Shown here: piece by piece, positions 1,915-32,084 of the stretch
Position numbering within the stretch: position 1 is the stretch's first letter
Layout of the letters: every line of letters starts with the position of its first letter
Source of the DNA: Bdellovibrionales bacterium
Lineage (GTDB): Bacteria > Bdellovibrionota > Bdellovibrionia > Bdellovibrionales > JAMPXM01
Length of the DNA: 34,719 bases
Assembly: GCA_043739185.1 (NCBI GenBank)
Contig: JAYUEN010000376.1
Coordinates: 1-34,719, forward strand
Direction: 5' to 3'
Notes under the pieces: model-generated
Seen by the model: the letters and a program-made list of their open reading frames with translations, nothing else
What the model was told of the DNA's origin: nothing
The model's database searches: none
Position numbers and translations under genes: made by a program

Positions 1915-2469
1915 TTAAGGACAATGGACCAATAGTTCTGATAACCAATCTTTAGAGTCTAACAATAAGGTGAAAAATGAGTATAGTATTTTATTTTTTT
2001 TGCAATATACAAACAGCGTTTGAGTGTGGACTGGTTCTCGCGTGCTGCATCCCAATTGAAAATAACGGGATGAAAACAAGTTGCGTTGATCAATAATTTC
2101 GATTTCATTTTCATTGCTTAAGCCCTTGGGTAAGTTCGCAAGTCGGCATTTCACTGGCACAGAATCTTGTCCAGAATAGGGTTCAATATTCGATAAAAAA
2201 TAAATTTCTTGAGACTTGATAAATGCAGCTGTTTTTAGCTTCGCCTCTTCAGCTGTCAAATCTATATACTTTTTAAGTCTAGTTGTTTCCGGCTTAAGAT
2301 ATTTTTCGTAATTGATATTGGTAAGAAAGTTTTCGCCATCCAGCCTAATTTGGATTTGCTTTTCAGGTTTTTGTAGAGGTGAAGCACATGAGTATAGACA
2401 AATACTAAATATGGCAATTGCGGAGGTGCTGCGGAGCGCCTCCAAAACTAAGCAGGTACATTTAGGCAT
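1915..2469 (-). CDS. Hypothetical lipoprotein
   Basis: 184-aa ORF whose start overlaps the ccsA stop. Hydrophobic stretch ends in a LYSC lipobox-like motif; four further Cys follow. Exact start uncertain. Confidence 0.6.
   Translation of the reverse strand: MPKCTCLVLEALRSTSAIAIFSICLYSCASPLQKPEKQIQIRLDGENFLTNINYEKYLKPETTRLKKYIDLTAEEAKLKTAAFIKSQEIYFLSNIEPYSGQDSVPVKCRLANLPKGLSNENEIEIIDQRNLFSSRYFQLGCSTREPVHTQTLFVYCKKNKILYSFFTLLLDSKDWLSELLVHCP
2436..2459. repeat. 24-bp dispersed REP-like repeat, copy 1 (GCGCCTCCAAAACTAAGCAGGTAC)
   Basis: Identical 24-mer at 17339-17362. This copy overlaps a hairpin GGAGGTGCT-GCGG-AGCGCCTCC (2422-2443). Confidence 0.8.
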
Positions 2470-4204
2470 GTCTCATTCTCGATGCTACAGATGTTGCAAG
2501 AATTATGAGCTGCAAACTGATAAAGCCAACTACGACGGCGGTGCCCCCGCTTGAGAATCCGTAGGAATGTAAGCCGGCTGCCAATACGAAATTAACTCCA
2601 TACCAAGCCATGATCACCAAGAGGTAGGCGACTGTCGATGTCGCCAAACAGCCAAAAGCATCAAGCCAGCCAGCATATTTTGCGTGGAGTATGGCGATGA
2701 AGCCGACATCGGCGATCAAGGCCCAAGTTTCTTTTGGGTCCCATCCCCAGAATCTTCCCCATGAATAGTCGGCCCATATTCCACCGAGAATAATGCCGGC
2801 GGTAAGGAGCAGGACTCCAAGTTGAGTCATGCGGTAAGCAGAATGAGCGGAAACTTTTAAAAAATCAGGAGTGGCCGTCCCAAGAATAGTGCGAACCAGC
2901 GCGAAGTTTCCGATGAGCATACAAATTGTAAATGCAGCATATGAAATCGTTATTGTTAAAACATGAATCGTAAGCCAGTAGTTACTACGTAAGACAGCAA
3001 CAATGGGATCCATATCAGGGCTGAGAACGAGAGGAAAGCCTTCAGTCAAAATTAAAACAAGGGCACTTCCTAGAAGTAAAAAACCCACGAGCATATAATT
3101 TCCGTAAAGGGCCAAAAGCACAGAACTAAAGAGGGCAACACCCAATGCCACCCACAGCATAGTGCCATACATATTTGTTACTGGCGCAAAACCGGTAATA
3201 TAAACACGAGTCGCAAAGCCTGCAATGTGAAAGAGCAGCGGCAAGGCATAGATGATCCAGGCTGAAGGTTTTGATAATTTTTCGCGAATGGGCTTTGTAA
3301 GAAAACAAACTCCACAGAGAAAATATAAAAAAGCTGCCCACAAAAAAATGTGCAAATGATTGTGAAAAACTTCAAGATCAAGTGTCTGCACATAGTGGGT
3401 GAATAGATCGGGAGTCTTTTGAGCCTTCGTTTTTGCAAGTAAGTCGCGAGCAAAATCGGCGCTTAATTGCCCCTGGGCAAGTGCGGTTAAATATTGCTTT
3501 GCGATTTTTAGAATCTCAGTATCACCAGCGCCGGCTCCGGGCTCGCTGTTAATTCCTGAAAAATCGACACTTGCCAAAAAGTGACCGCCGCCGATCATGC
3601 CTCGAGCTAGGTTATATTGATTGGCTAATTCGAGCATGGCTTTTTCAGCAGGAACGAGCGAGCGCTTATTGGCCTGCTCTTTTTCAAGCAAGGGGCGTAC
3701 ACGTTCATCGATACCAAGTTTGTCAAGATCGGCTACGGAGTAAAAACGATGATCTCGGCGGTAACCAAGCGTTTCTCTTAAATCAGCATCGCGAATTTCA
3801 ATTATTTCAAGCGCGGAATTGTATTCAAATACGATGAGTCCAAGATAGAATTGAACCGGATCAAGCCCCCACTTACTTCGACTTCCTAAAATATACAAAT
3901 TGCTTTCGCGTGCTAAACTATCTAGCGGCTTAATACGACCATTATTTTGAACTGGCAAAGTTTCAATCGCAGACGAATCAATTTTAGCAGCAAAGATTGC
4001 AAATGCCTTTTCAGCTTCTGCTCCTGAAATTTGCGAAACCGGCGCTGTGGTAGCGGTCGGTGGTGGAAGCTTGCCATCTTCAAATTGCGTCACTGCGGGT
4101 GGCTGTGAGGTGCCATGAGGATTGACCGCTTGCGCTTGTGACCAAAGATTCGAGCTGTAGATTAAAGCAAGAAAAGCGACTCCGACCGTTAAGAGATTTT
4201 TCAT
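2462..4204 (-). CDS. ccsA: Cytochrome c biogenesis System II protein CcsA/ResC with N-terminal periplasmic domain
   Basis: WWD motif WADYSWGRFWGWDPKETWA. Conserved His in WLTIHV, ILHAK and GLHSY; APVTNMY and LVLSP..VL.SNYWL motifs; multiple TM helices. Start ATG 4204 has an GGAGA RBS and an ATGA overlap with resB. Confidence 0.93.
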   Translation of the reverse strand: MKNLLTVGVAFLALIYSSNLWSQAQAVNPHGTSQPPAVTQFEDGKLPPPTATTAPVSQISGAEAEKAFAIFAAKIDSSAIETLPVQNNGRIKPLDSLARESNLYILGSRSKWGLDPVQFYLGLIVFEYNSALEIIEIRDADLRETLGYRRDHRFYSVADLDKLGIDERVRPLLEKEQANKRSLVPAEKAMLELANQYNLARGMIGGGHFLASVDFSGINSEPGAGAGDTEILKIAKQYLTALAQGQLSADFARDLLAKTKAQKTPDLFTHYVQTLDLEVFHNHLHIFLWAAFLYFLCGVCFLTKPIREKLSKPSAWIIYALPLLFHIAGFATRVYITGFAPVTNMYGTMLWVALGVALFSSVLLALYGNYMLVGFLLLGSALVLILTEGFPLVLSPDMDPIVAVLRSNYWLTIHVLTITISYAAFTICMLIGNFALVRTILGTATPDFLKVSAHSAYRMTQLGVLLLTAGIILGGIWADYSWGRFWGWDPKETWALIADVGFIAILHAKYAGWLDAFGCLATSTVAYLLVIMAWYGVNFVLAAGLHSYGFSSGGTAVVVGFISLQLIILATSVASRMRHA

Positions 4205-6099
4205 GTCAGTTTTCTCCATTGTTTATATTTCGAACTTCGCATTACAGTGAAAATAATGATTCCCAGAACAAGAATAAGACTTCCGGTATATTTGATACTA
4301 CGGCCCGGATCTTGATTCACTGAAAAGATAGATGCTGGCGGCTGTCCGGGATTGAGTTCGTAGCTTGCCTGATACAAAACATAACCAGCATACTTCAAGG
4401 GTTCATTCATGGCGATTTTAATTTTTCCTGGCAAATTATTGACGTGAACATCACTCTCATAAGAAATCGGCGTTTGTGTGCCCGGATAATCTTTCTTATA
4501 AAATTTTTCAAGACCAATGCTAAATGGCAGGCGCAAAGTTTTTCGGCCAAAATAAATTTCAAACTCACGACCATTGCGGCTTAAGCGCTTTGGCTCACCT
4601 TCGATCAACCAAAAACTTTGTGCATCTAAAGTTCCCGGAATTTTTACTTGCAAAGCGGCCGGCGGAATATTCGTTCGTAGCGGATGCTCAATAGAGGTTA
4701 CCAGAGCTTGGTTGGAACTATTCATTTGAATATTGCCAATGGTAATCGTTATGCCCATCCAGGGTGTTTGCACCACGGTCCCGGATTCAGCCCATTGCGA
4801 AAGAAGTTCCTTTCCTTCTTTATAAAGCGCGACGCGAATCTTATTAGGCCTATCCTTATAGGCATGAAATTCAATTTCATTGCCTTGACCGCGCTGCCTC
4901 GGACTCGAAGTTTCGCCTGTGCCTGCGGACTCGATTGCCGTTCCGCCGCCGTGAGGACTAGCGGCATTTTGATTCAGATTCTCAGTGGGCATACTGGGAT
5001 CGGAATAGGTGAAGCTCATCCCAAAAATTCCTTCAGCATGCAATGAAAAGTTGGGAAATTTAGCATACAAGACTTCTCGCTGCTTTTGAGCTCCATCTGC
5101 AATCTCGATTTCGATTGCGGGATTTTTTCCTAATTCACCACCCTCACTGACTCCTCCCTGACTGACCACTGCTTGCTCATATAGTTTTTTCATACTTACT
5201 GAATACTGGCCAATTTGAATCGCGGCCTTCTTAAGTTTTGCAATTGAAATTCGTGTGACCAGGCTATTATCAGATTTCTTTCTCACTTCAATGGCCACAT
5301 CATGTGACGAAGACTTTGATTTATTCACCGCGACTGTGGCCTTTTTCACCTTCACTTTTGAAGTGGGACTCGATTTGGTTTCGCCTTGAAAACTAGAGTG
5401 CTCTAATATTCGCAAATGAGCAGGACCCATTTGAAGTTCAGAACGTTCTTTACTATGAAGCCATTCACTTTGGTTGAAGAATTGACTTTTCAAAATGAAA
5501 CCCAAAGCGACCCCATGATCGCCATCATTTTGAGGACGAAACTCAGATTCAATTGAAACAAAGGGGGCGTATTTTAAAACTACAATTCGATCGGCAACTT
5601 TATTATTTAAAAAGTCGAGCGCTTTACCAGTGAGCTCATGCGCCTGCCGAACAAATCTATAAGTCTCGGGCTGCTCACTTTCAGGAGTGGCCATTTCTAA
5701 AACTAAATCTGGTAAAATGATGGTGTCATTGGCCGCATTTTCAACTACACGCAACTGACCGTCGATGCCATATTCTGCAGTGACCAGTGACCCAAACAAT
5801 AAGGTGAGTAGCCCCAAATGAGTGATGACAAATCCTAAATGATGAATTTTATATGGAATTCGTGAAAGCGTAGAAGCGAAAATATTGATCCATAATAAAC
5901 AAAGAAGTATTTGAAACCACCAGGCTTGATAAACCAACATTTTGGCCATTTCGGCATTGTAGCGACTCTCAACGATTGTTCCGTAGGCCACTGAAAAAGC
6001 CACCGTCAGCATCAAGGGTACTGCCAGTTTAATTGAAGAAATGAACTTAAAAATTTTATTGCTTTTGAGCTTAGCGATCACTTCAAAAAATAGCTTCAC
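4201..6099 (-). CDS. resB: Cytochrome c biogenesis System II protein ResB/CcsB
   Basis: N-terminal TMs with GTIVES, VYQAWWF and ITHLG (TM-His). Large periplasmic region with LPFSIGLEKF..YPGT..P.SYES, MNEPL.Y.GY.LYQASY and DPG, then a C-terminal TM. Coupled to ccsA. Confidence 0.9.
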   Translation of the reverse strand: MKLFFEVIAKLKSNKIFKFISSIKLAVPLMLTVAFSVAYGTIVESRYNAEMAKMLVYQAWWFQILLCLLWINIFASTLSRIPYKIHHLGFVITHLGLLTLLFGSLVTAEYGIDGQLRVVENAANDTIILPDLVLEMATPESEQPETYRFVRQAHELTGKALDFLNNKVADRIVVLKYAPFVSIESEFRPQNDGDHGVALGFILKSQFFNQSEWLHSKERSELQMGPAHLRILEHSSFQGETKSSPTSKVKVKKATVAVNKSKSSSHDVAIEVRKKSDNSLVTRISIAKLKKAAIQIGQYSVSMKKLYEQAVVSQGGVSEGGELGKNPAIEIEIADGAQKQREVLYAKFPNFSLHAEGIFGMSFTYSDPSMPTENLNQNAASPHGGGTAIESAGTGETSSPRQRGQGNEIEFHAYKDRPNKIRVALYKEGKELLSQWAESGTVVQTPWMGITITIGNIQMNSSNQALVTSIEHPLRTNIPPAALQVKIPGTLDAQSFWLIEGEPKRLSRNGREFEIYFGRKTLRLPFSIGLEKFYKKDYPGTQTPISYESDVHVNNLPGKIKIAMNEPLKYAGYVLYQASYELNPGQPPASIFSVNQDPGRSIKYTGSLILVLGIIIFTVMRSSKYKQWRKLT

Positions 6100-6292
6100 A
6101 TAATTCCTTAATTGAAAAAAATGAATTGCCTAAGGGCTCTATCTTCATTGATAATTTTACAAATTAATACTGCAATTTTAATGATGGTGCGATGCAAATT
6201 TAGAAGCAAGTTTGAAAACGAAGTAAGACGCAATATGCTTAAGCAAAACGGGGCAAGCAATTTTAAAGAACAGCCAATACTCAAAGCCTAAA
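6100..6292. promoter_or_regulatory. Divergent promoter region between resB-ccsA and the porin-cytochrome operon
   Basis: AT-rich spacer of about 190 bp between head-to-head genes; individual promoter elements not resolved. Confidence 0.55.
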
Positions 6293-7657
6293 GTGAGCAA
6301 ATTGCCCACTGCCATCTACAGTTTGGCGATGACAACATTGAAGTCGTTGAACAAATGGCCTCTGGCACTCAGCCTTCTTGTTTGCGTTCAAGCTGCACTG
6401 GGTACAGAAGTCAATGGACGCCTTACTGTTGGTGGCTATGTGGCGACTGAAGAGATTGATCTTCCAACTAGTCTTGCGAGTCGCAATGATGTTGAAACGC
6501 TCTCGGCCAGAGCCTATCTAAGAATAAATGATTTCGGCAAAGCGGGCAGCGAGTTGATTTCAGATTTAAGAGATAAAAATGACTTTTTTGGCAATGTTGA
6601 CAAACAAAATCTGCAACTCGCCCCCTCAAATAGCTTTCAAGTTCATCAATTGTCAGCGCAATTACCGTTTAGTAAGTTGTTTACCAAGCTCGGACGCTTT
6701 CCGGTAAATGAAGCCGGAGCCGCTACCGATGGCGCCGAAATAGGTTATAAATTTGGGCCCTCTTTTCAATCCGCGCTCTTTGGTGGATACAATCCCCGTG
6801 TCCCCGGACAAAAATATTATGTTTTCAACGCCAATGCGAATGTCTATGGCGGTTATTTTGTATACCAGCCGACGTCTGCAATATTTGGCCGCTCGTTTTA
6901 CTTCTCAAACGCCATTGTCAGTGAAAAAGTCGACGGCCTCACCGATCGAAACTACTGGTTTGAAAACTTAACTTATCAATGGAGTATGCGAAGCCGGATT
7001 TTATTTCTCACCTATTTAGACTTTGTACCAAATTCCTATTTGCAAAACGGCACCTTTCAGTGGCAGCAGGTGCTCGGTGAAAAATGGTCCGCAAGTACGA
7101 ATATCATTTCAGTTGATGTCGTTGAATATGCTCATATTCAGGGGGTTAGGTCATTGCTACCCTCGTCGCCCTATCATGAACAGAGTGAGTTTTTAAGATA
7201 TACCATTAACGATCAATTTTGGAGCGAGCTTCGCTATATATCCGGTCAAAGACTTATTGATGGTTTGAATCGTACGGATCTTGTTTGGGCGACAGACTAT
7301 AGTAACTTTGGTGGTCGTCACTGGGATACAAGTTACCAACTCGGATACTCCAATGATTTTCAAAGCAAAGACGTTTTTCTCAAGTTTGGGCTAGCCTATT
7401 TCTCGCGAAAGTGGGAGTTTAGCCTGGACGAAGAGGTGCGAAGTGCTGTTTACAGCGACGGCACTTATCATCCTATTACGACGGATATCAATATTGCGCG
7501 CACTTTTCGCAACGATTTTTTCGCAATTTTTGGCGCCCAAGATATTATCGACGAACGTGTGAAGATTATGGCTGGATATTTTAAATTGACCTATCGCTTT
7601 GGCAGTTCAAGTATGGCTCCGATTCGCGATGGCGCTCCCCCAAGGGGGCGCTTATGA
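6293..7657 (+). CDS. Putative outer-membrane beta-barrel (porin of a porin-cytochrome complex)
   Basis: Signal peptide (likely start ATG 6329). Aromatic-rich alternating beta-strand pattern, TKLGRF motif, terminal strand YFKLTYRF plus a short tail. ATGA-coupled to the multihaem gene. Confidence 0.75.
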   Translation: MSKLPTAIYSLAMTTLKSLNKWPLALSLLVCVQAALGTEVNGRLTVGGYVATEEIDLPTSLASRNDVETLSARAYLRINDFGKAGSELISDLRDKNDFFGNVDKQNLQLAPSNSFQVHQLSAQLPFSKLFTKLGRFPVNEAGAATDGAEIGYKFGPSFQSALFGGYNPRVPGQKYYVFNANANVYGGYFVYQPTSAIFGRSFYFSNAIVSEKVDGLTDRNYWFENLTYQWSMRSRILFLTYLDFVPNSYLQNGTFQWQQVLGEKWSASTNIISVDVVEYAHIQGVRSLLPSSPYHEQSEFLRYTINDQFWSELRYISGQRLIDGLNRTDLVWATDYSNFGGRHWDTSYQLGYSNDFQSKDVFLKFGLAYFSRKWEFSLDEEVRSAVYSDGTYHPITTDINIARTFRNDFFAIFGAQDIIDERVKIMAGYFKLTYRFGSSSMAPIRDGAPPRGRL

Positions 7658-10350
7658 AATTGTTAATTCATTTATTTATTTTGCTTTCACTTGGCATTTC
7701 AAGTTCGGTGCACTCAGAAGAAAAAGAGAGCGAAGGACTGCTCAATCGTTTACTTGCCCCAGGCCCCTTAATGTCAGGACACAAGAATCTCGAAGGCAAT
7801 GACTGCTTGAAATGTCATGATGCTGGCCAGGGAATCTCGCAACCCAAATGTATGGAGTGCCACAAACCCATAAAAATTGAAGTGGATGCAAAAACCGGCT
7901 TTCATGGAATGCAAAAGCAATCTTGCATTGAGTGCCACAGTGATCATAAGGGCCGTGATTTTGATTCGACAAAAGTCGACCAAAAAACTTTTGATCACAA
8001 TTTGACAGGATATAAACTTGAGGGCAAACACGCCGAACTCGATTGTGCCAAATGCCATACTGAAACCCGCAGCAAAAAAACCATTCGTCGCGGTGGCATT
8101 TTATTTGTGGGAGCCAAATCAAATTGTATCAGTTGCCACAAAAAGAACGATATTCATGCCTTTAAGGGCGAGTATGCAAAAAAAGACTGTTATGTCTGTC
8201 ACAGCCTCAAAGCCTGGAAGCAAGAACTTAAATTTGATCATACACGCGACACAAAATACAAACTCGAAGGCAAACATGCCGAACTTAAGTGTGCCGACTG
8301 TCACGGGCCAAGTAAAAAGAAAGCAACTTCGCAATACAAATGGCCGATCGCAACGGCGCAGTGCCAAGCCTGTCACGCGAATTTTCATAAAAATAATTTG
8401 AGCCCCCACTTTGCCGGTGGAAAGTGTAGTACATGCCACGATCAAAAGAGCTGGAAGCTTCCGGACTTTGATCATCAGGTGACCAAATATTCTTTACGAG
8501 GCAAGCATGCTGAACTTAAATGTGAAGAATGCCATAAACAGAATCCAAAGGTTTTGGCATCAGGCTTAAAAAACTTCAATTTTACCGGGCTTAAATCCAA
8601 CTGTCTCAATTGTCATAAAGATTTTCATTTTTTCGGCCAGAAAGTTTCAAAAAATCTAGGCAAACTCAATCAATGTCTTAGCTGTCACGTCGAAAGTAGT
8701 TTTAAAAAGATTCATGGCTTTGATCACAATCAATCCACGCGTTACGTTATTGATGGCAAGCATACAGATCTGAATTGTGAAGATTGCCATATGGTGAAGC
8801 AAAATCCGAAAGCGAAAAATGGTCCGAGAACGCCGACCTATCATTGGGAGAAACTCAATGATAAGACTTGCGAAAACTGTCATGCAAGTCCACATATCAA
8901 ATCATTTACCAAAGATCTTTTGAAAAAAAGATGTACAGAATGTCATTTAACAGAGGGCTGGACCATTTTCAAAAAAGATGGCAAGCGCTTTGATCATTCT
9001 AAGACTCGTTTTGCATTGACCGGAAACCATACCAGCCTTGCATGCAAAGAATGTCATGTCGTTGCAAAAAAGCAGGTCTTTAAATTTCAACATTTTGAGG
9101 GCCAATTTTGTATCGAATGCCATAAGACTCCACATGATAAGCAATTTAGTCCGCAACAAAGTGCAAAGTCTTGTTCAGAATGTCACAATACGAAAGCTTT
9201 TTCAGAGGTCGCACAATTTGATCATAGTAAAACTCGCTTTCAACTTAAAGGGCGACACAGTAATTTAAAATGCATTGAATGCCATATTGCGACCAATCAA
9301 ATGTTCACTGGAAAATCTCCCCACCCAAAGGGTAAATTTTTATTTCCTGAACTCGATTCAAAATCCTGTTCGAGTTGCCATTCTGATTATCACAAGGGCC
9401 AGCTGGGCTTTGACTGTGCCAAATGTCACAATGAAGAAAGCTGGAAGAAGCCTGCCTTTGATCACAATAAACAAAGTCAATTTTCAATTACCGGTGCTCA
9501 TACAAAACTAAAATGCGAGTCTTGTCATAAAGAAGTTCCAGGTCAAAAGGTCGAATTCTCTAAAAAACTTTATTCTTTAGTCTTATTTAAACCTATGAGA
9601 ACTGAGTGCGCCTCCTGCCACTCCGATTTTCATCGGGGGCAGCTCGGAAATGATTGCGCCAAATGCCATATCACCGAAAAGTGGAAGCCCGCGGCCTTTG
9701 ATCACAATAAACAAAGTCAGTTTAAGATTGAAGGTAAGCACGCCGAACTTGCTTGCAATGAATGTCATAAATTTCAAAGAGGAGAATCTGTTCAATTCGG
9801 CGGAAAAGAATTTAAATTAACTCGCTACAAACCACTAGCGGCTGAATGTTCGACTTGTCACAAAGATCCACATAAAGGTAGTTTCGGAAATAAATGTGAA
9901 GAATGTCACGCAGCACGTGGCTGGAAGTTCACCAAGGACTTTCATAAGAATTTCACTCTCACTGGAGTTCACTTCACTTTGTCATGCAACGAATGTCATA
10001 CCAACAATCGAAGGCTAGCTGGTCTTAGCCAAGATTGTTTTGTGTGCCATCAAAGAGACGATATACACAATGGTTCACTACCTAATTGCAAAGCCTGCCA
10101 TGGTCAGCAGTTCTGGGAGAATACAGGCTTTAGACATTCGGTCAGTCGCTTTGCTTTAACCGGAGCACACAGAACCATCGATTGCACCTCTTGCCATTAT
10201 AATAATATTTATCAGGGCACACCCACGCAGTGCGGAAGTTGCCACTTAGCTGCCGCACTTGCTGTGACTAGCCCTCCACATAGTGCATTTAGCAACGTCA
10301 ATGATTGTGGCAGATGCCACAATACATTTAATTTTGTGATACCAAAATAA
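7654..10350 (+). CDS. Periplasmic multihaem cytochrome c, 33 CxxCH in 11 triheme modules
   Basis: Sec signal peptide; 33 CxxCH motifs counted by eye. Repeating unit FDH-x-(Y/F)xLxGxH-CxxCH-CxxCHxxxH-CxxCH-xxxxW. Very Lys-rich. Confidence 0.95.
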   Translation: MKLLIHLFILLSLGISSSVHSEEKESEGLLNRLLAPGPLMSGHKNLEGNDCLKCHDAGQGISQPKCMECHKPIKIEVDAKTGFHGMQKQSCIECHSDHKGRDFDSTKVDQKTFDHNLTGYKLEGKHAELDCAKCHTETRSKKTIRRGGILFVGAKSNCISCHKKNDIHAFKGEYAKKDCYVCHSLKAWKQELKFDHTRDTKYKLEGKHAELKCADCHGPSKKKATSQYKWPIATAQCQACHANFHKNNLSPHFAGGKCSTCHDQKSWKLPDFDHQVTKYSLRGKHAELKCEECHKQNPKVLASGLKNFNFTGLKSNCLNCHKDFHFFGQKVSKNLGKLNQCLSCHVESSFKKIHGFDHNQSTRYVIDGKHTDLNCEDCHMVKQNPKAKNGPRTPTYHWEKLNDKTCENCHASPHIKSFTKDLLKKRCTECHLTEGWTIFKKDGKRFDHSKTRFALTGNHTSLACKECHVVAKKQVFKFQHFEGQFCIECHKTPHDKQFSPQQSAKSCSECHNTKAFSEVAQFDHSKTRFQLKGRHSNLKCIECHIATNQMFTGKSPHPKGKFLFPELDSKSCSSCHSDYHKGQLGFDCAKCHNEESWKKPAFDHNKQSQFSITGAHTKLKCESCHKEVPGQKVEFSKKLYSLVLFKPMRTECASCHSDFHRGQLGNDCAKCHITEKWKPAAFDHNKQSQFKIEGKHAELACNECHKFQRGESVQFGGKEFKLTRYKPLAAECSTCHKDPHKGSFGNKCEECHAARGWKFTKDFHKNFTLTGVHFTLSCNECHTNNRRLAGLSQDCFVCHQRDDIHNGSLPNCKACHGQQFWENTGFRHSVSRFALTGAHRTIDCTSCHYNNIYQGTPTQCGSCHLAAALAVTSPPHSAFSNVNDCGRCHNTFNFVIPK

Positions 10351-10458
10351 TCGCCCAAGTAATCGCGGGTATGAGACTGAAGTCGAGTAATTTTGAATGG
10401 CCGTTTTCTCTTGGCTCTTAGACTTGAAGTTTGAGCAATAAATTCAGATAATATTTGG

Positions 10459-11814
10459 ATGAAATTAGTTCATTCAATTTCGCAATTTCTACTCAACCAT
10501 GTAGAACTCGCTTTTACAGTTTTTGGTATTGCTTTCATTTGGTTTCGCATCAGTCAAAAAAATAAACGCGAAGCTTATGCCAAAAAAGCTTTGAAAAAAG
10601 CCATTGCAACCCAAGCCAATGAGCCGCTCACTCTGCACCCAGAAGTAGATGCAGCACTTTGCGCGGGCTGCGGAGCCTGTACCCGTGTTTGCCCTGAAGG
10701 CGACATCTTAAACATGATCAATCACAAAGCGGTTTTGGTTTCTCCAACTAAATGTGTCGGCCATGGCGAATGCGAAAGAGCTTGTCCCTTCAGCGCCATC
10801 AAACTCGTTTTTGGAACTAAAACCAGAGGACTTGATATTCCGAGATTGAATTCAAATTACGAAACCAATGTACCAGGACTTTATATCGCCGGTGAATTGG
10901 GTGGCATGGGGCTTATTAGAAACGCTGTTAAGCAGGGCGTGCTCGCAACCCAAGATGCGATTGCGAAATTAAAACCTAAGGCAGCAGTGCAAAGCGATGT
11001 TTTTATCGTTGGTGCCGGGCCTGCAGGATTAGCAGCGGCACTTGCTTGTGTGGCGAATAAAAAAACTTATGAATGCATTGAGCAAAATAGTTTTGGCGGA
11101 ACTGTTTATAATTTTCCTCGGCAAAAAATTGTTATGACCGCGCCCGCCAATTTGCCAGTAGTAGGCGAAATGAAATTTGCCAAAAACAAAGTAACCAAAG
11201 AACAATTATTAGGTTACTGGGAAGAAGTTCGTAAAAAAGCAGGAATCCAAATTCGTGATAAAACCAGCTTTCAGGGCTTAGAGGCTTTTCAAGGCGGCTT
11301 TAAAATTAAAACCAGTAACGGAGATTTTACCGCTCAAAAAGTCATACTCTCAATGGGAGTTCGTGGGAGCCCAAGAAGACTTGGCTTGCCAAATGAAGAC
11401 TTACCAAAAGTAACTTATAATTTGATTGATCCTGAACAATATCAAAATTCAGATGTAATGGTTGTCGGCGGCGGAAACGCCGGCGTTGAAGCCGCACAAT
11501 ATTTGGCTAATCCCAAACTCAATAATCGAGTTAGTCTGGCTATTCGAGGTATGGATTTTGATCGCTGCAATGATGAAAACAAAAGAATCATAAATGAAAT
11601 GGCTCAGAAGTCGCAGGTCAAAATTTTTTTTAAATCTTCAGTCGCCGAAATTCATCCTGAACATTTGGTAATGAATATTGGTGAGGAAAAAAAGAATGTC
11701 GCCAACCACTATTTATTTGTTTTTGCTGGTGCTGAAATGCCTCACAAATTTTTAATGAGCCTGGGAATCAAAATCGAGAAGAAATTTGGGGAAGGCCTTG
11801 CCAAACCTTCATAG
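10459..11814 (+). CDS. Membrane-anchored 2x[Fe-S] ferredoxin-domain FAD/NAD(P)H oxidoreductase (TrxR/YpdA/FNR-like fold)
   Basis: N-terminal TM; CAGCGACTRVCP and CVGHGECERACP; ETNVPGLYIAGE; FAD motif IVGAGPAG; NADPH-type VVGGGNAGVEAA; no redox CxxC. Confidence 0.88.
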   Translation: MKLVHSISQFLLNHVELAFTVFGIAFIWFRISQKNKREAYAKKALKKAIATQANEPLTLHPEVDAALCAGCGACTRVCPEGDILNMINHKAVLVSPTKCVGHGECERACPFSAIKLVFGTKTRGLDIPRLNSNYETNVPGLYIAGELGGMGLIRNAVKQGVLATQDAIAKLKPKAAVQSDVFIVGAGPAGLAAALACVANKKTYECIEQNSFGGTVYNFPRQKIVMTAPANLPVVGEMKFAKNKVTKEQLLGYWEEVRKKAGIQIRDKTSFQGLEAFQGGFKIKTSNGDFTAQKVILSMGVRGSPRRLGLPNEDLPKVTYNLIDPEQYQNSDVMVVGGGNAGVEAAQYLANPKLNNRVSLAIRGMDFDRCNDENKRIINEMAQKSQVKIFFKSSVAEIHPEHLVMNIGEEKKNVANHYLFVFAGAEMPHKFLMSLGIKIEKKFGEGLAKPS

Positions 11815-11854
11815 AAAAAAGCCAGAACTCAATTGGCTTGCAAAGTAAAAACCT

Positions 11855-12733
11855 ATGACACTCAAAAATTATACCTATATTTGGTTTTTCATAAGTCTCA
11901 TCATTTGCTTTGAATACCTTGCCCTTAATTTTCAACCGCAATTGAGTATGCTCAATTTGCTCAAGCATCATAATCACTCGTCGAAATTTATTGAGCACTT
12001 AAATCTTTCCCCACTTCCCGGCAGACAATTGAGTCTGTATTTTGGTTGGGCCGGGATCTTGATCATGTTATCGATGAATGTCTACACACTTAAAAAGCGT
12101 TTCAAGTATATCGGAATGCTTTTACCCTCTTTGCCCAGTACTTTTAATTTTCATATTTTTTGTGGCCTGATCGGCCCAACATTTATTTTGTTTCACTGTA
12201 ATTTAAAAGTACATGGCTTAGTAGCGATTAGCTTTTGGAGTATGCTGGTTTCTGCTAGCAGCGGCGTTTTGGGGCGCTATTTATATGGCCAACTCTTACA
12301 GAAAAAATATGATCTCAAAACCTCAGCCGACGCCGATAAATTGCGATTGGAAGCAGAGTTTACCAAACTCATGCCAAAAGTGAAACCAGAAAGACGAGAG
12401 CAAATTCTGCAAGAGGCTCTGATTTATGTTGGCTTACCCTCAACCAATAATGATGAATTTGACAGTTTAAGTATTTGGCAGGTTTTGATAGGCTCAATTG
12501 CAGGGGACGCCAGATTGTATTTTGCCGAACCCAATGCTAAAGAAAATCTGCATTTGAAAATAAGAGCCCTTCTGACAAATTGGGCCCTAACCATGCGAAG
12601 AAATATGTATTTAGACCCCCTGCAAAGACTAATGGGTTACTGGCATGCCTTTCATTTACCCTTCGCTTTTTTTATGTATATCGCAGCCTTTATACATATT
12701 GTGGCGGCACTTTTATTAGGGGTGAAAAAATGA
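11855..12733 (+). CDS. Inner-membrane protein, putative dihaem cytochrome b (ferric-reductase-like TM domain)
   Basis: About 5 hydrophobic segments with two Hx13H pairs (H100/H114 and H267/H281) and a SGVLGRYLY motif. Confidence 0.72.
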   Translation: MTLKNYTYIWFFISLIICFEYLALNFQPQLSMLNLLKHHNHSSKFIEHLNLSPLPGRQLSLYFGWAGILIMLSMNVYTLKKRFKYIGMLLPSLPSTFNFHIFCGLIGPTFILFHCNLKVHGLVAISFWSMLVSASSGVLGRYLYGQLLQKKYDLKTSADADKLRLEAEFTKLMPKVKPERREQILQEALIYVGLPSTNNDEFDSLSIWQVLIGSIAGDARLYFAEPNAKENLHLKIRALLTNWALTMRRNMYLDPLQRLMGYWHAFHLPFAFFMYIAAFIHIVAALLLGVKK

Positions 12734-12821
12734 TCGACACATTTGGCGTCTATCTTTGAGAAACTCGTAAAAATCACGTTTATCACTTTAGTCCAGTTCA
12801 GTCTAAACCGATCAGTTAGGA

Positions 12822-15800
12822 ATGCCGCGACCATCTGAATTCATTAAATTATTTCTTAAAAACAAGGATATGCAGAGGACTTGGGTCGTTCTTTTTTTAG
12901 TTATTCTGGTCGCATCTTTTAGCTTTCAAAATTGCGTGAAGGCTCCCGCGCCAGGTCAAATTACGACTCTAACTTCGATCGCCTCAAGTATTCATACCGG
13001 CAAAGAAACTGCTTGTTCAAATTGTCACGAAACGGGTAGCAGTGGTCGCCCAACTTCTACCGCTGGCTTTGTTAATTTGAATGTGAATACGCCATTTGAT
13101 TATACGACTCATGCCAAAGGCATCGACTGTATCAGTTGTCATGATATGTCCCAAATTGCGCGTACAAAGGCCGATTGGGGAAATGGATTTTTTAATCACA
13201 GTTCAACTTTAACCGCATGCAATTCTTGTCATACGTCACAACAGCCGAAAAATTCGGTTGCAGATCTTGCCCTCACTGGTGGCTTTGATCATACAATTTT
13301 GGGAGCTCAAGATTGTTTCGGTTGCCATCAAGCTTCATTGAATACTTCTTTTTCAGGCTTAGCCGATTGGTCCGGCGGCGTTGGTGCGGCCAATGGTTTA
13401 AAATATGCAACAATGAGTGATGTATCACTTTCGGGTCAAGCCTCGCAGTTACCAAATTTTTCAAATACTGTTATATCAAGTTTAACCAACGCTCCACAAA
13501 CTATTCATATGAGTATGAACCATCAAAGCAGTTTGATTACACCGCAAGTGATTTCAAACTGTGCGACTTGTCACGTAGGTGGAGTTTATACAAGCGGGGT
13601 ATTTCATAATGCGATTCGCGGTGCAGGAATTGCGCAGCCCACTTCTTGTAGCGACTGTCATAATAGTTCATCACTTCCAATTGGGATTGTCGGTCCTACT
13701 ACACCTGCGCCAGTCACACCAAGGTCGCCAGTTTCAAATGAGATGCGCCATGATGCGGTCGTTTGGTCAAAGAATGCGTCTGGCCAATTTGTAAGTACTT
13801 CGACTGGTATTGTGAGTAACGACTGTGTCGTTTGTCATAATGCTCCCGCGGCAGCTCCGGTCGGAGGAAACAACGGCTGGAATGGCGGACTTTATCACGC
13901 CTCACTTACTACTGCTAAAGTTTCCCAACCAAGTTCTTGTTTAGATTGCCATGCGAACTCACGTACAATCGGAAACAATGTCGGGACACTCACCGGCTTT
14001 GACCACAGTGTTCACGCCAATGGCGAAGGCGACTGTATCAGTTGTCATACGAGTAAATCCGCTTGGACCGGTGGTGTCTTTCATCAAGCCAGTTTGACGG
14101 CTCCAAGCACTTGTAATTTGTGTCATGCCTCACAACGACCAAATGGTATCCTAACCATTGGTTCTGCTGGTGGCAGTTTCAATTTTGTGGGCTATAATTC
14201 TGCGAAGCTCCCATTCGATACTTCGTCGGCGCAAAATACCACCGGTTACCATGGTGGAACTCGTGAGTGTAATGTTTGTCATACTCCAACTATGTTCAGC
14301 TTGATGAGCAATTGGTCGGGCGGAAATTTTGATCACGTCGCCGCCAATACCGCGCACACTTTGACGAGTTGCCAAGATTGCCATATGTCACAGCGACCAA
14401 CAGCCGCCATTTCACCAACCACATTGAATGGCTTGTCAGCAAGTTTTGATCACAGTCTGAACGGGCAAGGCGATTGTATCGCATGTCACTCATCAACTAT
14501 TACGCGTGCAGTTTATGCCAATTTTCAAACTGCTAACCCAGGAACATACGGAGATACAGATTGGCGCGGAGGCGTTGGTACGCCCACAGGTTTAGCAGGA
14601 CCAGATCCAACCAAACCACTGACTCAACTTCCGGCTGTACATGTGAATTACACCAATCTCGCGACATTTCAGTTTGGTCCACAAACCAATTTGACTGAAA
14701 CGCTATCAGATCAACTTCTTCATAGTTCAACACAAATTATCACCTCAGCCCCTTCAGTTTGGACGGGTGGAGTTGTCGGTAGCACTTTAGATCCGGCTCA
14801 GTGTATGCAGTGTCATACAAATCTTCCTACTAAATATGCGGGTTCTTCTTTTCACGCAGCAGTCACGCCTCCGGGCCCTGAAGCTTCTGCAAGTTTAACG
14901 GCCTGTGCGGTTTGCCACCTCAATACGACGCCTGCAAATATCGTCGGAATTCCGAGTACCTTTGTAACGCCATTTTTAACTCCAATGGATCATAGTGCAA
15001 ACTTAAGTAGTGGAACTGTGCTCGCAAATGATTGCATCGTTTGCCATACTAAAACCACTGCTGGAACTTCTTTCTCAGGTGCAAGTTTTCACAACAACAT
15101 AGGTTCGGCTTCTCCCTCAACTTGTACCACTTGCCATGCCTATACCGAGCCCACAGGAGCCTTTGCGTTCACCGGCCATAGCGCGCAAACTCTTGGCTTC
15201 AAACATGCCTCAAGTTTCGCACCTGGTGATTGCAATGCTTGCCACAGTCTCACCAATACTCAGGTAAATACTTTGATTACAGCTCACGGCAAAGTTTCAA
15301 CAAATTTCAGTGGCGGATTGTTTCATAAAAACGTGGCTCCAACGGGCGTCACTTCGTGTGTTGATTGCCACACTAAAACTGCAATCGCAAATCCAACTGT
15401 AAGTGCAATCGATGCCCAGCATATGAATCACAATTCAACCACAGTCGGAAGCGACTGCTATATGTGCCATAAAAATGACTTGGCTGCGAGTATTACACCA
15501 ACGGCTTTTGGCAAATCAAATCTCTTTCACGCTGGGACCAATACGAATCTTTCAGTATCAGGCTCAGTCGTCAGCACTTGTACGGAATGTCACGGCTTAA
15601 CAAATGGTGGCGGCTCAGTGCCGGGAACCAATAATGAAATTCCGGCTGCAGGAGCAAAAAATACCGATGTGGCTTCGACTTATCCAGCAGGCAATACGAC
15701 ACTGATGGATCAGATCGACCATAACGATACAACTGTAACCGGCAAAGATTGTGATATTTGTCACACCAATATTGGTCCTACCGGCCCTAAATGGAAGTCC

Positions 15801-16409
15801 GCAAAATTTCACGCCAATGTCGCCGTCACCGGCCCAGCGACAGCCTGTGAATCATGTCACGCAAACTTAAGACCTGCAGGCATTGCAAACGGTGAAGATC
15901 ATTCTGTAACTGCACCCATGTCTCATACCGCTTGCGGAACTTGTCATACTAATCCTGCAGGAACCGGAACCATTGGCTCGACTTCTTCTCCACCAAATTG
16001 GTTAAATGCAGTCGGTGGAAGTATCCCTGCTACAATTACATTTCCTGCACCTACAGGCTCTGGGTGGGCTCCGTTAACTCTTGCGCATCCCGTTCCTGCC
16101 ACAGGCGTCACCTGTGCTCAATGTCATGGTACATCTGTCGGCGCAACTGTCATAGGCTGGGATCATGGCCATATGCCAGCACTTCCGTCTGGAGCTAAAT
16201 ATTGTATGTATTGTCATTTGACTGGCCAACAAGTTGTAGCAACTGCTGGACTTACTAAATTTCAAACCAAGGCAATCAACCATCACGGGACCATCGGCCC
16301 AACCGATACCTGTGAGTATTGCCATACCCCTGGCCAAAACGTGCATCAGAATTTTTCATATCCTAATCCGTGGAACTCAGGTACCACCGGCAATGTCAGC
16401 GGCCCTTAA
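12822..16409 (+). CDS. Lipoprotein multihaem cytochrome c, 27 CxxCH, probably surface-exposed
   Basis: FQNC lipobox (likely start ATG 12870 puts Cys at residue 22); 27 CxxCH motifs counted by eye; FH/FDH/MNH distal His motifs; S/T/G/A/P/N-rich with low charge. Confidence 0.93.
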   Translation: MPRPSEFIKLFLKNKDMQRTWVVLFLVILVASFSFQNCVKAPAPGQITTLTSIASSIHTGKETACSNCHETGSSGRPTSTAGFVNLNVNTPFDYTTHAKGIDCISCHDMSQIARTKADWGNGFFNHSSTLTACNSCHTSQQPKNSVADLALTGGFDHTILGAQDCFGCHQASLNTSFSGLADWSGGVGAANGLKYATMSDVSLSGQASQLPNFSNTVISSLTNAPQTIHMSMNHQSSLITPQVISNCATCHVGGVYTSGVFHNAIRGAGIAQPTSCSDCHNSSSLPIGIVGPTTPAPVTPRSPVSNEMRHDAVVWSKNASGQFVSTSTGIVSNDCVVCHNAPAAAPVGGNNGWNGGLYHASLTTAKVSQPSSCLDCHANSRTIGNNVGTLTGFDHSVHANGEGDCISCHTSKSAWTGGVFHQASLTAPSTCNLCHASQRPNGILTIGSAGGSFNFVGYNSAKLPFDTSSAQNTTGYHGGTRECNVCHTPTMFSLMSNWSGGNFDHVAANTAHTLTSCQDCHMSQRPTAAISPTTLNGLSASFDHSLNGQGDCIACHSSTITRAVYANFQTANPGTYGDTDWRGGVGTPTGLAGPDPTKPLTQLPAVHVNYTNLATFQFGPQTNLTETLSDQLLHSSTQIITSAPSVWTGGVVGSTLDPAQCMQCHTNLPTKYAGSSFHAAVTPPGPEASASLTACAVCHLNTTPANIVGIPSTFVTPFLTPMDHSANLSSGTVLANDCIVCHTKTTAGTSFSGASFHNNIGSASPSTCTTCHAYTEPTGAFAFTGHSAQTLGFKHASSFAPGDCNACHSLTNTQVNTLITAHGKVSTNFSGGLFHKNVAPTGVTSCVDCHTKTAIANPTVSAIDAQHMNHNSTTVGSDCYMCHKNDLAASITPTAFGKSNLFHAGTNTNLSVSGSVVSTCTECHGLTNGGGSVPGTNNEIPAAGAKNTDVASTYPAGNTTLMDQIDHNDTTVTGKDCDICHTNIGPTGPKWKSAKFHANVAVTGPATACESCHANLRPAGIANGEDHSVTAPMSHTACGTCHTNPAGTGTIGSTSSPPNWLNAVGGSIPATITFPAPTGSGWAPLTLAHPVPATGVTCAQCHGTSVGATVIGWDHGHMPALPSGAKYCMYCHLTGQQVVATAGLTKFQTKAINHHGTIGPTDTCEYCHTPGQNVHQNFSYPNPWNSGTTGNVSGP

Positions 16410-26552: not shown

Positions 26553-27428
26553 TCAATTCAGGTCGAGACCTAAAACTTCACCCTGCTCCGAGAGATGAAT
26601 GAGAAGATTTTGTGATCTGGTCGTGATTGAATTGATTTTCATATTGCTGCAATAAACTTGTACCCACGACTCAAAATCAATTAAGTTTTCCTGTCCAGAA
26701 ATGCGATTCCAGTGTTCATTGTTCAAATTAAAGCCAACCAATACTTCGTTTTCTTTTGAGCAGTTTATTTTCTTCATAATTCGAGAAGTTAACTGCAATG
26801 ACTTTCCGGATTTCGCGGTAAAATAAACTTCCGCAATTGGCGTCGGCATTGGGTAAGTCAAAATGTTAAATTGAATTCGATTTTGACTGCTCGCGAATTC
26901 AAAATCAAAAGTGGCAAGCTTGTTAGAAAGAGAAAAGCGAATTTTAGCTCCTAAAATATCAAGCTTTGCATGGTTAGGCTCACCGGTCTGATGTCCAACC
27001 TCGTGAATCAACAAGGCTACAACTGTAGAAAAATCAAGGCTCGGTCGCCCCGATAAATCATAAAGCTCATCGACATTAAAAAATATGGGTAGCTTCGTAT
27101 CCAAGCCAGTCTTTGCAATTCGGTAGTTTTCAGTCGAAGAAGTCGTAAAAAACCCTGGATTTAGTTTTTCTGAAACGAATTGAATTCGATCTTCTGAAGT
27201 ATAATTTTGCAAAACGATTTGCTCAATACTTTTTAAAATTGAACTTTCTTCTTGCGTGAGTCCACATTGATTGTTCGCCATATGACAACCAGAAATAATT
27301 TTTGGTAAATTTAAATATGCGAACTGAATATTTTGTTCTACAAGACCGGCACCGTTTCCAACAATTCCGCCAGCAAAACTTACTGAAGTAAATAAAAAAT
27401 ATATTAAAATTCCACTAGTTGTTTTCAT
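26553..27428 (-). CDS. Secreted protein with GGxxGNG motif and HExxH (putative metallopeptidase)
   Basis: Start ATG 27428 overlapping the upstream gene; signal peptide ending SFA, then GGIVGNGAG; LLIHEVGH followed by NH. Confidence 0.65.
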   Translation of the reverse strand: MKTTSGILIYFLFTSVSFAGGIVGNGAGLVEQNIQFAYLNLPKIISGCHMANNQCGLTQEESSILKSIEQIVLQNYTSEDRIQFVSEKLNPGFFTTSSTENYRIAKTGLDTKLPIFFNVDELYDLSGRPSLDFSTVVALLIHEVGHQTGEPNHAKLDILGAKIRFSLSNKLATFDFEFASSQNRIQFNILTYPMPTPIAEVYFTAKSGKSLQLTSRIMKKINCSKENEVLVGFNLNNEHWNRISGQENLIDFESWVQVYCSNMKINSITTRSQNLLIHLSEQGEVLGLDLN

Positions 27429-28284
27429 TGCTGGTCTCCGTGTGGTCTTCTTTTTTAGTGTGTTCAAATAATTGCACATTCAGTTGGTAGATTTGATTGG
27501 ACTCTTCCGCTTCAAACTCAGAATTAAATTCGTTTACAAATTGCAGAATGTCGGACTTCGCTTTCGCCATCTCTTTCGAATCAAACTTTAGTGTCAAAGA
27601 ATTGAAGTGGCGAGACCTAACCTCTTGCTCATCAACAGCTTCGATGGCTCGATTCATCATGCCTTTATGGTGAGCCCGAATGGCCTCCGAAGGGATCTCA
27701 TGGGTGGTTTCAAGCGTTTGATTTAAGATTTCTAATTGCCCATCCGCATTTCTATTAACGATGCCAAGCTCAGTCATGATTTCGATTGATTTTTTGACTT
27801 GGGCAGGACTAACTTTTTTTCGCAAGCGACGACTGATCCAAGAATAGTCCTCTCGAAAATCAAATGTGCTAATCAAGCTTTGTATAGCAATGTGATACCA
27901 ATCTCGCATCATAGAAAATTGCTTGAGGCTCACTTTATAAGTGTCTTTAAAGTGACTCAACTTGCCGAGAACTTGTTCGGTATTGCGCCCTTTTTTTCGC
28001 AATTTCTCAAGCTGAACCAAATTTCGAATATATTGATCTTCTTCACGTGACAACTTCCAGTGATGTGAAATGGCGTCTAATAGCTCCGAACTGGGTAAGC
28101 GCTCGCCAGAAAAAATCATCGATATACTGCTTGCAGAGCTATAGCCAAGTAACTTTGCAAACTGCTCTAAGTTCGTTCTCTTTAATCCATCCGAGGCAAG
28201 GAACTCGCGCTGAAGTCGATATTGAAAGTAATCTTGAAAGTTTTTAAATTGAATGGCCTTTAACTTTTCCAGTCGAATCTCCAT
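27415..28284 (-). CDS. TIGR02147-family protein (HTH plus DUF4423)
   Basis: FAKLLGYSSASSISMIFSGER HTH; WYHIAI, WISRRL, AIRAHHK, E.R.F..LT, YQLNVQLF. Confidence 0.88.
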   Translation of the reverse strand: MEIRLEKLKAIQFKNFQDYFQYRLQREFLASDGLKRTNLEQFAKLLGYSSASSISMIFSGERLPSSELLDAISHHWKLSREEDQYIRNLVQLEKLRKKGRNTEQVLGKLSHFKDTYKVSLKQFSMMRDWYHIAIQSLISTFDFREDYSWISRRLRKKVSPAQVKKSIEIMTELGIVNRNADGQLEILNQTLETTHEIPSEAIRAHHKGMMNRAIEAVDEQEVRSRHFNSLTLKFDSKEMAKAKSDILQFVNEFNSEFEAEESNQIYQLNVQLFEHTKKEDHTETSNENN

Positions 28285-31520: not shown

Positions 31521-32084
31521 ATGACTAAATCAAGTATTAGATTTGCCGTATTGGGTCTCTCGACTTTTTCAATGATGCTCCTTTTTCAAAACTGCGGAGA
31601 TCGTTTCAGCTTCAATTCCTCAGTCGCCGGCGCCACCTTAGTCGCTGCCAACGTCCCCGCAACTAATGCTCCGAATGCAGATGGGGCACCGCCCGCATCT
31701 CAACCACCATTAGGTGTAAAAGGTAAACCGCCGTTTGAGCCACTCCCACCAGTATGTCCTCCTGACGAAAACGAGGCTACAAAATTGGTGGAATGTGAAC
31801 TCGGAAGTCCAAATATGAAAATCATCTTGAGTACGGATTTGGTTGCAGGCTCAAATGCCCAGGCCACTCGGTTGTGTATGTCTCAACATGCTTGTCTAGA
31901 TTTGGTAAATGCCTATGCCCAAGCTCGAAACTGCGCCTTGAATTTAGGGGCCGCAGTGAACGCAACCGCTGCCGCCAGCTGCACGGCAATCTTCCCAGGT
32001 AGCCAAGGAACTTGCCACAATGCAGACGCCGTATCGGACGCAGTTGTCGCAAGTGTTTTGACAGCAATGGCTGCCGGCCATTGA
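31521..32084 (+). CDS. Small Cys-rich lipoprotein
   Basis: AGGGG RBS, FQNC lipobox, Pro/Ala linker, Cys-rich C-terminal domain. Confidence 0.75.
   Translation: MTKSSIRFAVLGLSTFSMMLLFQNCGDRFSFNSSVAGATLVAANVPATNAPNADGAPPASQPPLGVKGKPPFEPLPPVCPPDENEATKLVECELGSPNMKIILSTDLVAGSNAQATRLCMSQHACLDLVNAYAQARNCALNLGAAVNATAAASCTAIFPGSQGTCHNADAVSDAVVASVLTAMAAGH

Follow-up and report, generated by a model that had tools for sequence, protein, structure and literature searches.

Porin-cytochrome conduits of the PCC3 type are widespread and were proposed in 2017, and they are still called functionally unverified (bioRxiv 10.1101/2025.02.27.639646; statements on published work refer here and below to the accessible parts of each source). 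He et al. described PCC3 as a porin, two very heme-rich cytochromes and a five-helix inner-membrane protein (IMP) of about 300 aa that has an SGxxG motif and two WX3HX13H motifs; the IMP was likened to the ferric-reductase (FRD)/NADPH oxidase (NOX) proteins and to cytochrome b, and an exchange with quinones was proposed (PMC5566968). PCC3 was first described in Fe(II) oxidizers and modeled as an uptake system (PMC5566968), and the parts of later PCC3 papers that were accessible keep the four genes and give no tested function (PMC9900912; bioRxiv 10.1101/2025.02.27.639646). The conduit is often read as a marker of iron oxidation. Here we report on a seven-gene porin-multiheme cluster from a Bdellovibrionales bacterium, located on contig C376 (JAYUEN010000376.1; all 34,719 nucleotides of this contig were analyzed and are called the window) of a 4.85-Mb genome with a completeness of 97.65%. 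In this cluster the genes for a membrane-anchored iron-sulfur (Fe-S) flavoprotein of 451 aa and for an IMP of 292 aa lie on the same strand with a gap of 40 bp (Table 1). We give an even chance to the reading that this pair feeds electrons from the cytoplasm into a PCC3-type conduit, in which they pass from NADPH through FAD, Fe-S clusters and two b hemes to a cytochrome wire, and that the conduit is an electron sink that spends membrane potential. Our results suggest that electrons are exported straight from NADPH, not from quinones.

On the motifs tested, the cluster appears to fit PCC3. It shares with PCC3 a barrel candidate, very heme-rich periplasmic and surface cytochromes, and a five-helix IMP of about 300 aa that has SGxxG on transmembrane helix 4 (TM4) and Hx13H on TM3 and TM5. 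Relative to the PCC3 range of 22 to 39 residues per heme, the window wire (27.2) falls inside and the surface cytochrome (44.3) outside. PCC3 was, however, described with four genes, a hypothetical quinone link and hosts among the Proteobacteria, whereas the window adds the flavoprotein. The His pairs and the NOX likeness, which an earlier note on this DNA had put forward, make up the membrane half of the finding and are already in print (PMC5566968). We add to this the permuted Fe-S flavoprotein, a near-obligate partner, and a link of that partner to an insert in the IMP. The words "thioredoxin," "ferredoxin," "flavo," "FAD" and "pyridine" are absent from the main text of PMC5566968, and a literature search with most subscription papers outside its coverage found no publication tying a YpdA-like flavoprotein to a PCC3 conduit. 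Papers on MBNT15, an activated-sludge secretome and a conductive-particle consortium mention giant cytochromes but, in their accessible parts, not this pair (PMC9386147, PMC11495043, PMC13013709). No proteobacterial PCC3 record was among the loci returned by our homologue searches, and 20 cluster look-ups gave members only from Calditrichota, Acidobacteriota and Krumholzibacteriota, with no proteobacterium.

The flavoprotein is a near-constant fifth gene of these conduits and a near-obligate partner of the long IMP. Among 301 genomes of the host phylum, 18 encode the flavoprotein (E<1e-60) and each of these has an IMP match, which is strong in 17 and truncated at the end of a contig in one; of the 19 genomes with a strong IMP match, 17 have the flavoprotein, the two misses being IMP genes at a contig end. 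Among 251 Bacteroidota genomes, a long IMP is present in 27 and a full-length flavoprotein in 26, all of them among those 27; the 27th has an orphan IMP broken by a stop codon, with no cluster gene in 18 kb. These counts include kin and are not independent, but the same pattern is seen in each of two phyla, and in each the cluster has a patchy distribution. At the level of loci, the flavoprotein is found in 64 of 80 genome loci and in 28 of the 29 with full flanks; the genome of the single exception has the flavoprotein elsewhere, with three cytochromes and a barrel. The metagenome loci of at least 8 kb (31 of 80) include 21 with the flavoprotein, and most of the others end early. Co-inheritance of this kind points to a shared function, not to contact. 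The loci closest to the window cluster among the matches returned all come from Bdellovibrionota records. The whole cluster also sits on the 100-kb plasmid pEMTOL02 (NC_018749.1; L082, 11752-24336) of the cultured Emticicia oligotrophica DSM 17448, the sole match among 72,556 plasmids, with ccsA, IMP, flavoprotein, 23- and 40-heme cytochromes and a 538-aa barrel candidate, so that the question is open to experiment. The products of the two paired genes in this strain are WP_015031196 and WP_015031197. In several loci labeled Oligoflexales or related groups (L044, L045, L051, L052, L055, L057, L058, L060, L061, L063 and L064), a small tetraheme cytochrome replaces the large surface cytochrome, with the gene order IMP-flavoprotein-tetraheme-barrel-wire.

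The flavoprotein is a circularly permuted YpdA/thioredoxin reductase (TrxR) fold joined to a ferredoxin that has His in the place of one Cys ligand. Its best match in the PDB is Bdr (7a76; E 1e-24), followed by TrxR and TrxR-like ferredoxin-NADP reductases, which Foldseek returned as well. The C-terminal segment of TrxR (5nii, 241-295; Bdr, 278-295) has its counterpart in residues 120-174; because this segment precedes the FAD motif GxGxxG at residue 185, the flavin domain must be regarded as permuted, and by a strict pattern the same arrangement is present in 99 of 120 close homologues. The earlier note had called the protein an NADPH-type flavoprotein with GGGNAGVEAA, no CxxC, two Fe-S sites and a membrane anchor, and all of these features are indeed there. 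GGGNAGVEAA begins at residue 337 and contains a GxGxxG (GGGNAG), but this is in itself no mark of NADPH, and the position reads GGGD-x-A in 10/10 distant homologues. The NADPH call is instead based on R363 (kept in 115/120 close homologues), R369 (119/120) and the absence of an acidic residue at 362; these arginines resemble HRRxxxR, a motif for the 2'-phosphate (PMC8564101). In the ferredoxin part, C68/71/74/78 and C99/H102/C105/C109 make up a two-cluster motif. The second site (C99-x-x-H102-x-x-C105-x3-C109) has His in place of Cys in 120/120 close homologues, and therefore one cluster may be His-ligated or a [3Fe-4S] cluster. The seven Cys and His102 are invariant in 120/120 close and 10/10 distant homologues save for C71, which is Thr or Ser in 8 of the 10 distant ones, and two metagenome copies have Ile at both His102 and C71. 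A hydrophobic stretch covers residues 10 to 28 or so, and 104/120 homologues have an N-terminal hydrophobic helix; since basic residues follow the helix and there is no Tat motif, the protein is predicted to face the cytoplasm. It is the most conserved product of the cluster, with a mean identity of 61% versus 39 to 51% for the others (15 loci).

The candidates that we tried and rejected for the flavoprotein were a NOX dehydrogenase (the fold is that of TrxR/YpdA, and NOX dehydrogenase motifs occur in 1/120 and 0/120 homologues), the bacillithiol disulfide reductase YpdA/Bdr (TIGR04018 scores 154.7 bits against a cut-off of 339.9, and the fold is permuted, not an unpermuted single module) and TrxR (the redox CxxC of the NADPH domain, in the TrxR active-site region, is found in 0/120). 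Bdr (YpdA; 7a76, 7a7b; PMC8564101) nevertheless resembles the window protein in its TrxR fold without CxxC, its GxGxxG and its 2'-phosphate-site Arg, whereas the window protein differs from Bdr and from the TrxR-like ferredoxin-NADP reductases in being permuted, fused to a ferredoxin and an anchor, and less than half-way to the YpdA cut-off. Some unusual forms were also seen. In a metagenome locus (L238:6694-10113, + strand), the flavoprotein reads via a hydrophobic signal-like stretch into a 19-heme cytochrome, by fusion or by loss of a stop codon. The permuted domain occurs in proteins of 825 to 999 aa with C-terminal ferredoxin domains (L135:5596-8595, - strand; L136:4436-6913, + strand, with Fer4_5), with neither an IMP nor a multiheme gene in the fetched flanks. 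The gene is split into two or three pieces in L006, L050 and G024:C72, through assembly errors or decay.

The Hx13H pairs to which the earlier note had drawn attention in the IMP, His100/114 and His267/281, are present, and all four His are invariant in 120/120 close homologues (the best 120 of 446) and in 104/104 rows of a diverse set (taken from the best 150 of 2,934 profile matches, with fragments and long forms dropped; the two sets overlap by six rows). The spacing alone is weak evidence, because 4.5% of 10,000 shuffles of the IMP contain two such pairs. A fifth His beside the inner heme site, H264, is kept in 119/120 close and 96/104 diverse rows, and SGxxG (S136-G137-x-x-G140) in 120/120 and 103/104. 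TM5 has the full WX3HX13H (W263, H267, H281), and TM3 has Thr96 where the motif has Trp, the residue found in 105/120 and 93/104 homologues. An AlphaFold2 model (pLDDT 92.6) shows five long helices, two of which (93-114 and 234-289, TM3 and TM5) bear the His pairs, and a helical insert of about 110 residues that is predicted to be cytoplasmic. On average, 4.5 Lys/Arg and 0.2 Asp/Glu fall in the loop that leads into TM3, and the loop of 117 residues ahead of TM5 has a soluble, basic character. From these charges and the helix pattern, H100/H267 would lie inside, H114/H281 outside and the insert in the cytoplasm, so that the expectation of one His of each pair per membrane side is borne out at the level of prediction; the charge signal is not clean, as the short outer loop also has 1.7 Lys/Arg. 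A complex prediction with IMP, flavoprotein, two hemes and FAD scored 0.08 against a mark of 0.32 and is uninformative either way.

The likeness to NOX and ferric reductases that had been claimed for the pair holds weakly for the membrane protein, which is closer to FRD, and fails for the flavoprotein. Profile comparison supports the IMP being closer to the FRD family than to hydrogenase-type cytochrome b: in HHalign, the TM2-TM3 half gave 54.7% (E 1.2e-4, with the distal His in register) versus ten FRD proteins, 1.2% versus thirty hydrogenase-type cytochromes b and 0.3% versus CcsA. DUF4405 touches 61/120 IMPs. The IMP model had no Foldseek match at E<=0.001, the IMP profile had no sequence match in the PDB, and an ESM Atlas search with the IMP returned unnamed clusters only. 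STEAP (Z 8.0-8.4) and SpNOX ranked first among the heme membrane proteins in the structural results (STEAP4, Z 8.4, rmsd 6.4 Å, 158 aligned; SpNOX, Z 7.2, 4.2 Å, 121 aligned), below soluble bundles; VIA structural searches were topped by soluble helical bundles (McpS, Z 10.2-10.7), and the STEAP and SpNOX values are within the range of generic bundles. Kinship of the IMP to the FRD family is thus likely, not proven. NOX itself was rejected, because at the positions that by analogy from the distal His correspond to the His119/Thr178 signature (PMC3591440) the IMP has Lys (118, 111/120) and Ser (136, 120/120).

In the mechanism that we propose, NADPH would reduce FAD in the permuted TrxR-fold domain, and single electrons would move via both Fe-S clusters, first to the b heme on the inner side (H100/H267) and then to the one on the outer side (H114/H281). 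From the IMP they would enter the periplasmic wire with its 33 hemes, pass by way of the barrel to the surface cytochrome with 27 hemes and end on an outside acceptor, and the cytoplasmic insert of the IMP is the likely docking site of the flavoprotein. The scheme is built on observed motifs, folds, conservation, linkage and co-inheritance, from which we infer cofactor binding, contact, direction, quinone independence and acceptor. Each electron that leaves a cell with a negative interior diminishes the membrane potential, which is also the case in NOX. Because electrons would cross outward, the route would likewise spend membrane potential, and for this reason it would be an electron sink or a reductive tool rather than energy-conserving respiration.

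By analogy, the pair may work like a two-component NOX/MsrQ input, yet it is not a NOX. A precedent for such a split system is MsrQ with a separate cytosolic flavin reductase (PMC12525009, PMC5676040, PMC8238504). MsrQ too is a membrane protein of the FRD type that receives electrons from a separate NAD(P)H enzyme in the cytosol and hands them to a periplasmic protein, and its Trp147-x3-His151 on TM5 corresponds to W263-x3-H267 of the IMP. It differs in having one heme plus FMN and Arg for the first His, in binding ubiquinone and in serving MsrP (PMC12525009), whereas in the IMP all four His are retained, a large insert is predicted on the cytoplasmic side and the partner is a tethered Fe-S flavoprotein of a different fold. 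With NOX, SpNOX and STEAP (PMC5676040, PMC3591440), the IMP shares bis-His pairs on TM3 and TM5 and a weak profile match, but it has five helices, no fused FNR dehydrogenase and no NOX FAD/NADPH motifs. MtrCAB, fed by CymA/NapC, resembles the window in the porin-cytochrome layout of the outer half (a layout also given in PMC5566968) and differs from it in having cytochromes with 10 hemes, versus 33 and 27 in the window. The contrast with CymA-fed conduits drawn in the earlier note is borne out by the genome, in which NapC/CymA, bc1 cytochrome b and PF01794 had no match at 97.65% completeness, with positive controls detected. The ptd operon is listed with an FAD/NAD(P) oxidoreductase, a 4Fe-4S protein and a ferric-reductase-like protein of unknown function, and the accessible part of that paper proposes no direct NAD(P)H route (10.1101/2023.11.21.568154). 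We read the penta-, tetra- and decaheme content of ptdABCDEFG as matching PCC4; PCC4/ptd differs from the window in these cytochromes, in its cNMP-4Fe-4S subunit and in its FNR-type or unpermuted TrxR-like flavoprotein.

More distant members of the IMP family have other partners. Both Hx13H pairs are kept in 8/8 distant IMPs checked. A quick tree of the IMPs showed long branches and underlies none of our claims. One class lies between a 7-heme cytochrome and an FNR-fold FAD/NAD/2Fe-2S reductase (scanned in L085 and L086, with the same layout in L089), and at PCC4-type loci (L088, L137, L141) the IMP occurs with a cNMP-4Fe-4S protein and an FNR-type or TrxR-like flavoprotein. Cytoplasmic cNMP-4Fe-4S domains are fused to the IMP in P0379 and P0385; among 8000 longer-protein candidates there was one cNMP/Fe-S-IMP fusion and no IMP-YpdA fusion, which is weak evidence. 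Since distant IMPs adjoin an unrelated FNR-fold flavoprotein or carry fused 4Fe-4S domains, cytoplasmic donors appear to have been recruited more than once. In a short IMP class, with proteins of about 190 aa, the insert is missing and the His pairs are spaced by 78 to 93, versus 147 to 199 in long IMPs. Of roughly 40 matches to this class, 20 were fetched (L144-L163); all 20 precede a cytochrome with 7 to 16 CxxCH as a two-gene unit, and none has within about 6 kb a partner matching our three flavoprotein/Fe-S queries, with a weak TrxR-like gene near two of them. The insert thus tracks the presence of a cytoplasmic partner, which supports docking on it. The rule that short IMPs have no partner is not absolute, because Table S6 of He et al. 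has some 192-aa IMPs with a redox neighbor of 412 to 425 aa and others without (PMC5566968). A fourth class has an extra N-terminal domain, lies near P-type ATPases and has no flavoprotein seen nearby.

Some further features of these IMP classes were noted. The three-gene units of the FNR-fold class (L085:3422-6940, L086:7076-10358, L089:5992-9438) stand among genes that by eye resemble copper-resistance genes. The short IMP-cytochrome units are common in small genomes of the Bacteroidota sample. The N-terminal domain of the fourth class (L083:3458-4858, L084:7675-9027, L087:8033-9424, L090:7987-9387) has about 190 residues and no Pfam match in the two proteins scanned, and the genes adjoin a small membrane protein and a P-type ATPase or HAD gene.

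Several points weigh against an input fed by NADPH. He et al. give PCC3 four genes, no flavoprotein and a quinone-active IMP (PMC5566968), and MsrQ, from the known two-component NOX-like system, is a ubiquinone-binding protein (PMC12525009). The FRD kinship is weak, with PF01794 found in 9/120 IMPs below the Pfam cut-off (best E 0.037) and the C-terminal half (TM5) reaching only 1.6% versus FRD in HHalign. The flavoprotein lies within 300 bp of the IMP in just 41/64 loci, with varying strands, and the pairwise-distance correlation of the two is 0.80, versus 0.85-0.93 for other cluster pairs (15 loci). The NrfD-type quinol oxidase module of the genome could likewise feed the periplasm, and short IMPs with no linked NAD(P)H enzyme may mean that the four-His fold draws on quinol or on an unlinked reductase.

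A first alternative is that the IMP is a quinone-reactive cytochrome b and the flavoprotein a second port, giving a three-way junction of NAD(P)H, quinone and wire in which the pool is joined, not bypassed. We consider this unlikely but deserving of serious attention. Bypass of the quinone pool, as put forward in the earlier note, does not follow from Hx13H, since quinone-reactive cytochrome b also has Hx13H and MsrQ binds ubiquinone. A quinone-reactive IMP has been published as a hypothesis for the family (PMC5566968), the ubiquinone carried by MsrQ has been proposed as an electron acceptor (PMC12525009), and the conserved H264 next to the inner heme might be part of the lining of a quinone site. 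The short class, without a linked flavoprotein in 20/20 loci, shows the four-His fold encoded without a partner and so keeps this explanation alive. The near-obligate co-inheritance of long IMP and flavoprotein, however, argues against it, as do the lack of profile similarity between the IMP and quinone-reactive hydrogenase-type cytochrome b and the MsrQ potentials, which argue against a quinol donor (PMC12525009).

An improbable alternative is that the pair supplies reductant for assembly of the wire, keeping heme or some 60 apo-CxxCH reduced for a dedicated ResB/CcsA. The TrxR-type fold of the flavoprotein, the second resB/ccsA pair in the cluster at 14/29 full-flank loci and the constant position of short-class IMPs ahead of a multiheme gene are consistent with such a role. 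Yet resB/ccsA is absent from the other 15/29 loci, the flavoprotein active-site region has no CxxC, a Pfam scan of 2462-16409 found no thioredoxin-like gene, and Fe-S/heme chains are one-electron carriers, unlike DsbD/CcdA. The claim that the conduit makes NAD(P)H from outside donors is in our view very improbable: PCC3 was modeled as uptake in Fe(II) oxidizers (PMC5566968) and TrxR-like ferredoxin-NADP reductases are structural neighbors of the flavoprotein, but transfer to NADP+ would run uphill against the redox gap as well as against a membrane potential that is negative inside, and would thus by our estimate need donors near -0.45 V or lower; a Pfam scan found no coupling module in the cluster.

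If the pair is fed by NADPH, PCC3 conduits that bear the flavoprotein would pay for electron export with membrane potential, and counting them as uptake or respiration would be wrong. A quinone-free input would be added to extracellular electron transfer, and this capacity would extend to Bdellovibrionota, Bacteroidota, Calditrichota and Zixibacteria. More tentatively, and with some doubt, we propose that PCC3-type conduits in many phyla form a third class of extracellular electron transfer in Gram-negative bacteria. In this class, a tethered, permuted TrxR-fold Fe-S flavoprotein on the insert of an FRD-like di-heme protein would pass electrons from NADPH, without quinone, into a 60-heme chain that leads to the cell surface. 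Such a NOX-like valve would have been assembled on independent occasions with two or more unrelated flavoprotein folds, and would be present in heterotrophs that respire oxygen and are not known to be electroactive.

Table 1. Genes of the porin-multiheme cluster, with positions in the window
Feature	Position	Strand	Basis
Flavoprotein, membrane-anchored, Fe-S	10459..11814	+	Pyr_redox_3 and Fer4 (Pfam), PDB/Foldseek matches, motif counts
PCC3-type inner-membrane protein (IMP), predicted di-heme b	11855..12733	+	AlphaFold2 model, invariant His, PMC5566968 motifs
33-heme cytochrome c, predicted periplasm-spanning wire	7654..10350	+	CxxCH count, Pfam c7/c3, N-terminal hydrophobic leader
454-aa conserved protein, presumed outer-membrane barrel	6293..7657	+	BLAST homologue in 26/29 full-flank loci
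27-heme cytochrome c, predicted surface cytochrome	12822..16409	+	CxxCH count, lipoprotein-like leader judged by eye
ResB-like cytochrome c maturation protein	4201..6099	-	PF05140; divergently transcribed
CcsA-like cytochrome c maturation protein	2462..4219	-	PF01578

The 33-heme cytochrome has 33 CxxCH in 898 aa, and a cytochrome with at least 18 hemes is present in 28/29 full-flank loci. The 27-heme cytochrome is 42% Ser/Thr/Ala/Gly and its length differs widely among loci. The gene of the barrel candidate, which had no Pfam or NCBIfam match, overlaps the start of the 33-heme gene. The ResB-like and CcsA-like genes of the cluster are second genomic copies, with a ResB paralogue on contig C398. 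In the whole genome, only three open reading frames (ORFs) have at least three CxxCH, namely the two large cytochromes and a pentaheme that adjoins an NrfD gene on C398 and with it may represent alternative complex III; two heme-copper oxidases and a transhydrogenase are also encoded. Promoter and terminator scans gave nothing above chance level. DNA of the window was found in sediment metagenome runs of one study, none of them listed as an RNA run, and contigs from three of these runs, one possibly the source of the window, had no indels relative to it. Elsewhere in the window, a DUF4423 helix-turn-helix regulator gene (27415-28284, - strand) faces large exported or lipoprotein-like Cys/Ser/Thr-rich ORFs (28530-31265, 31521-32084 and 32646-34703, all + strand) without a Pfam match. 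Downstream of ccsA lies a cytochrome P460-family gene (1013-1948, - strand), with a 45% identical paralogue on contig C72.

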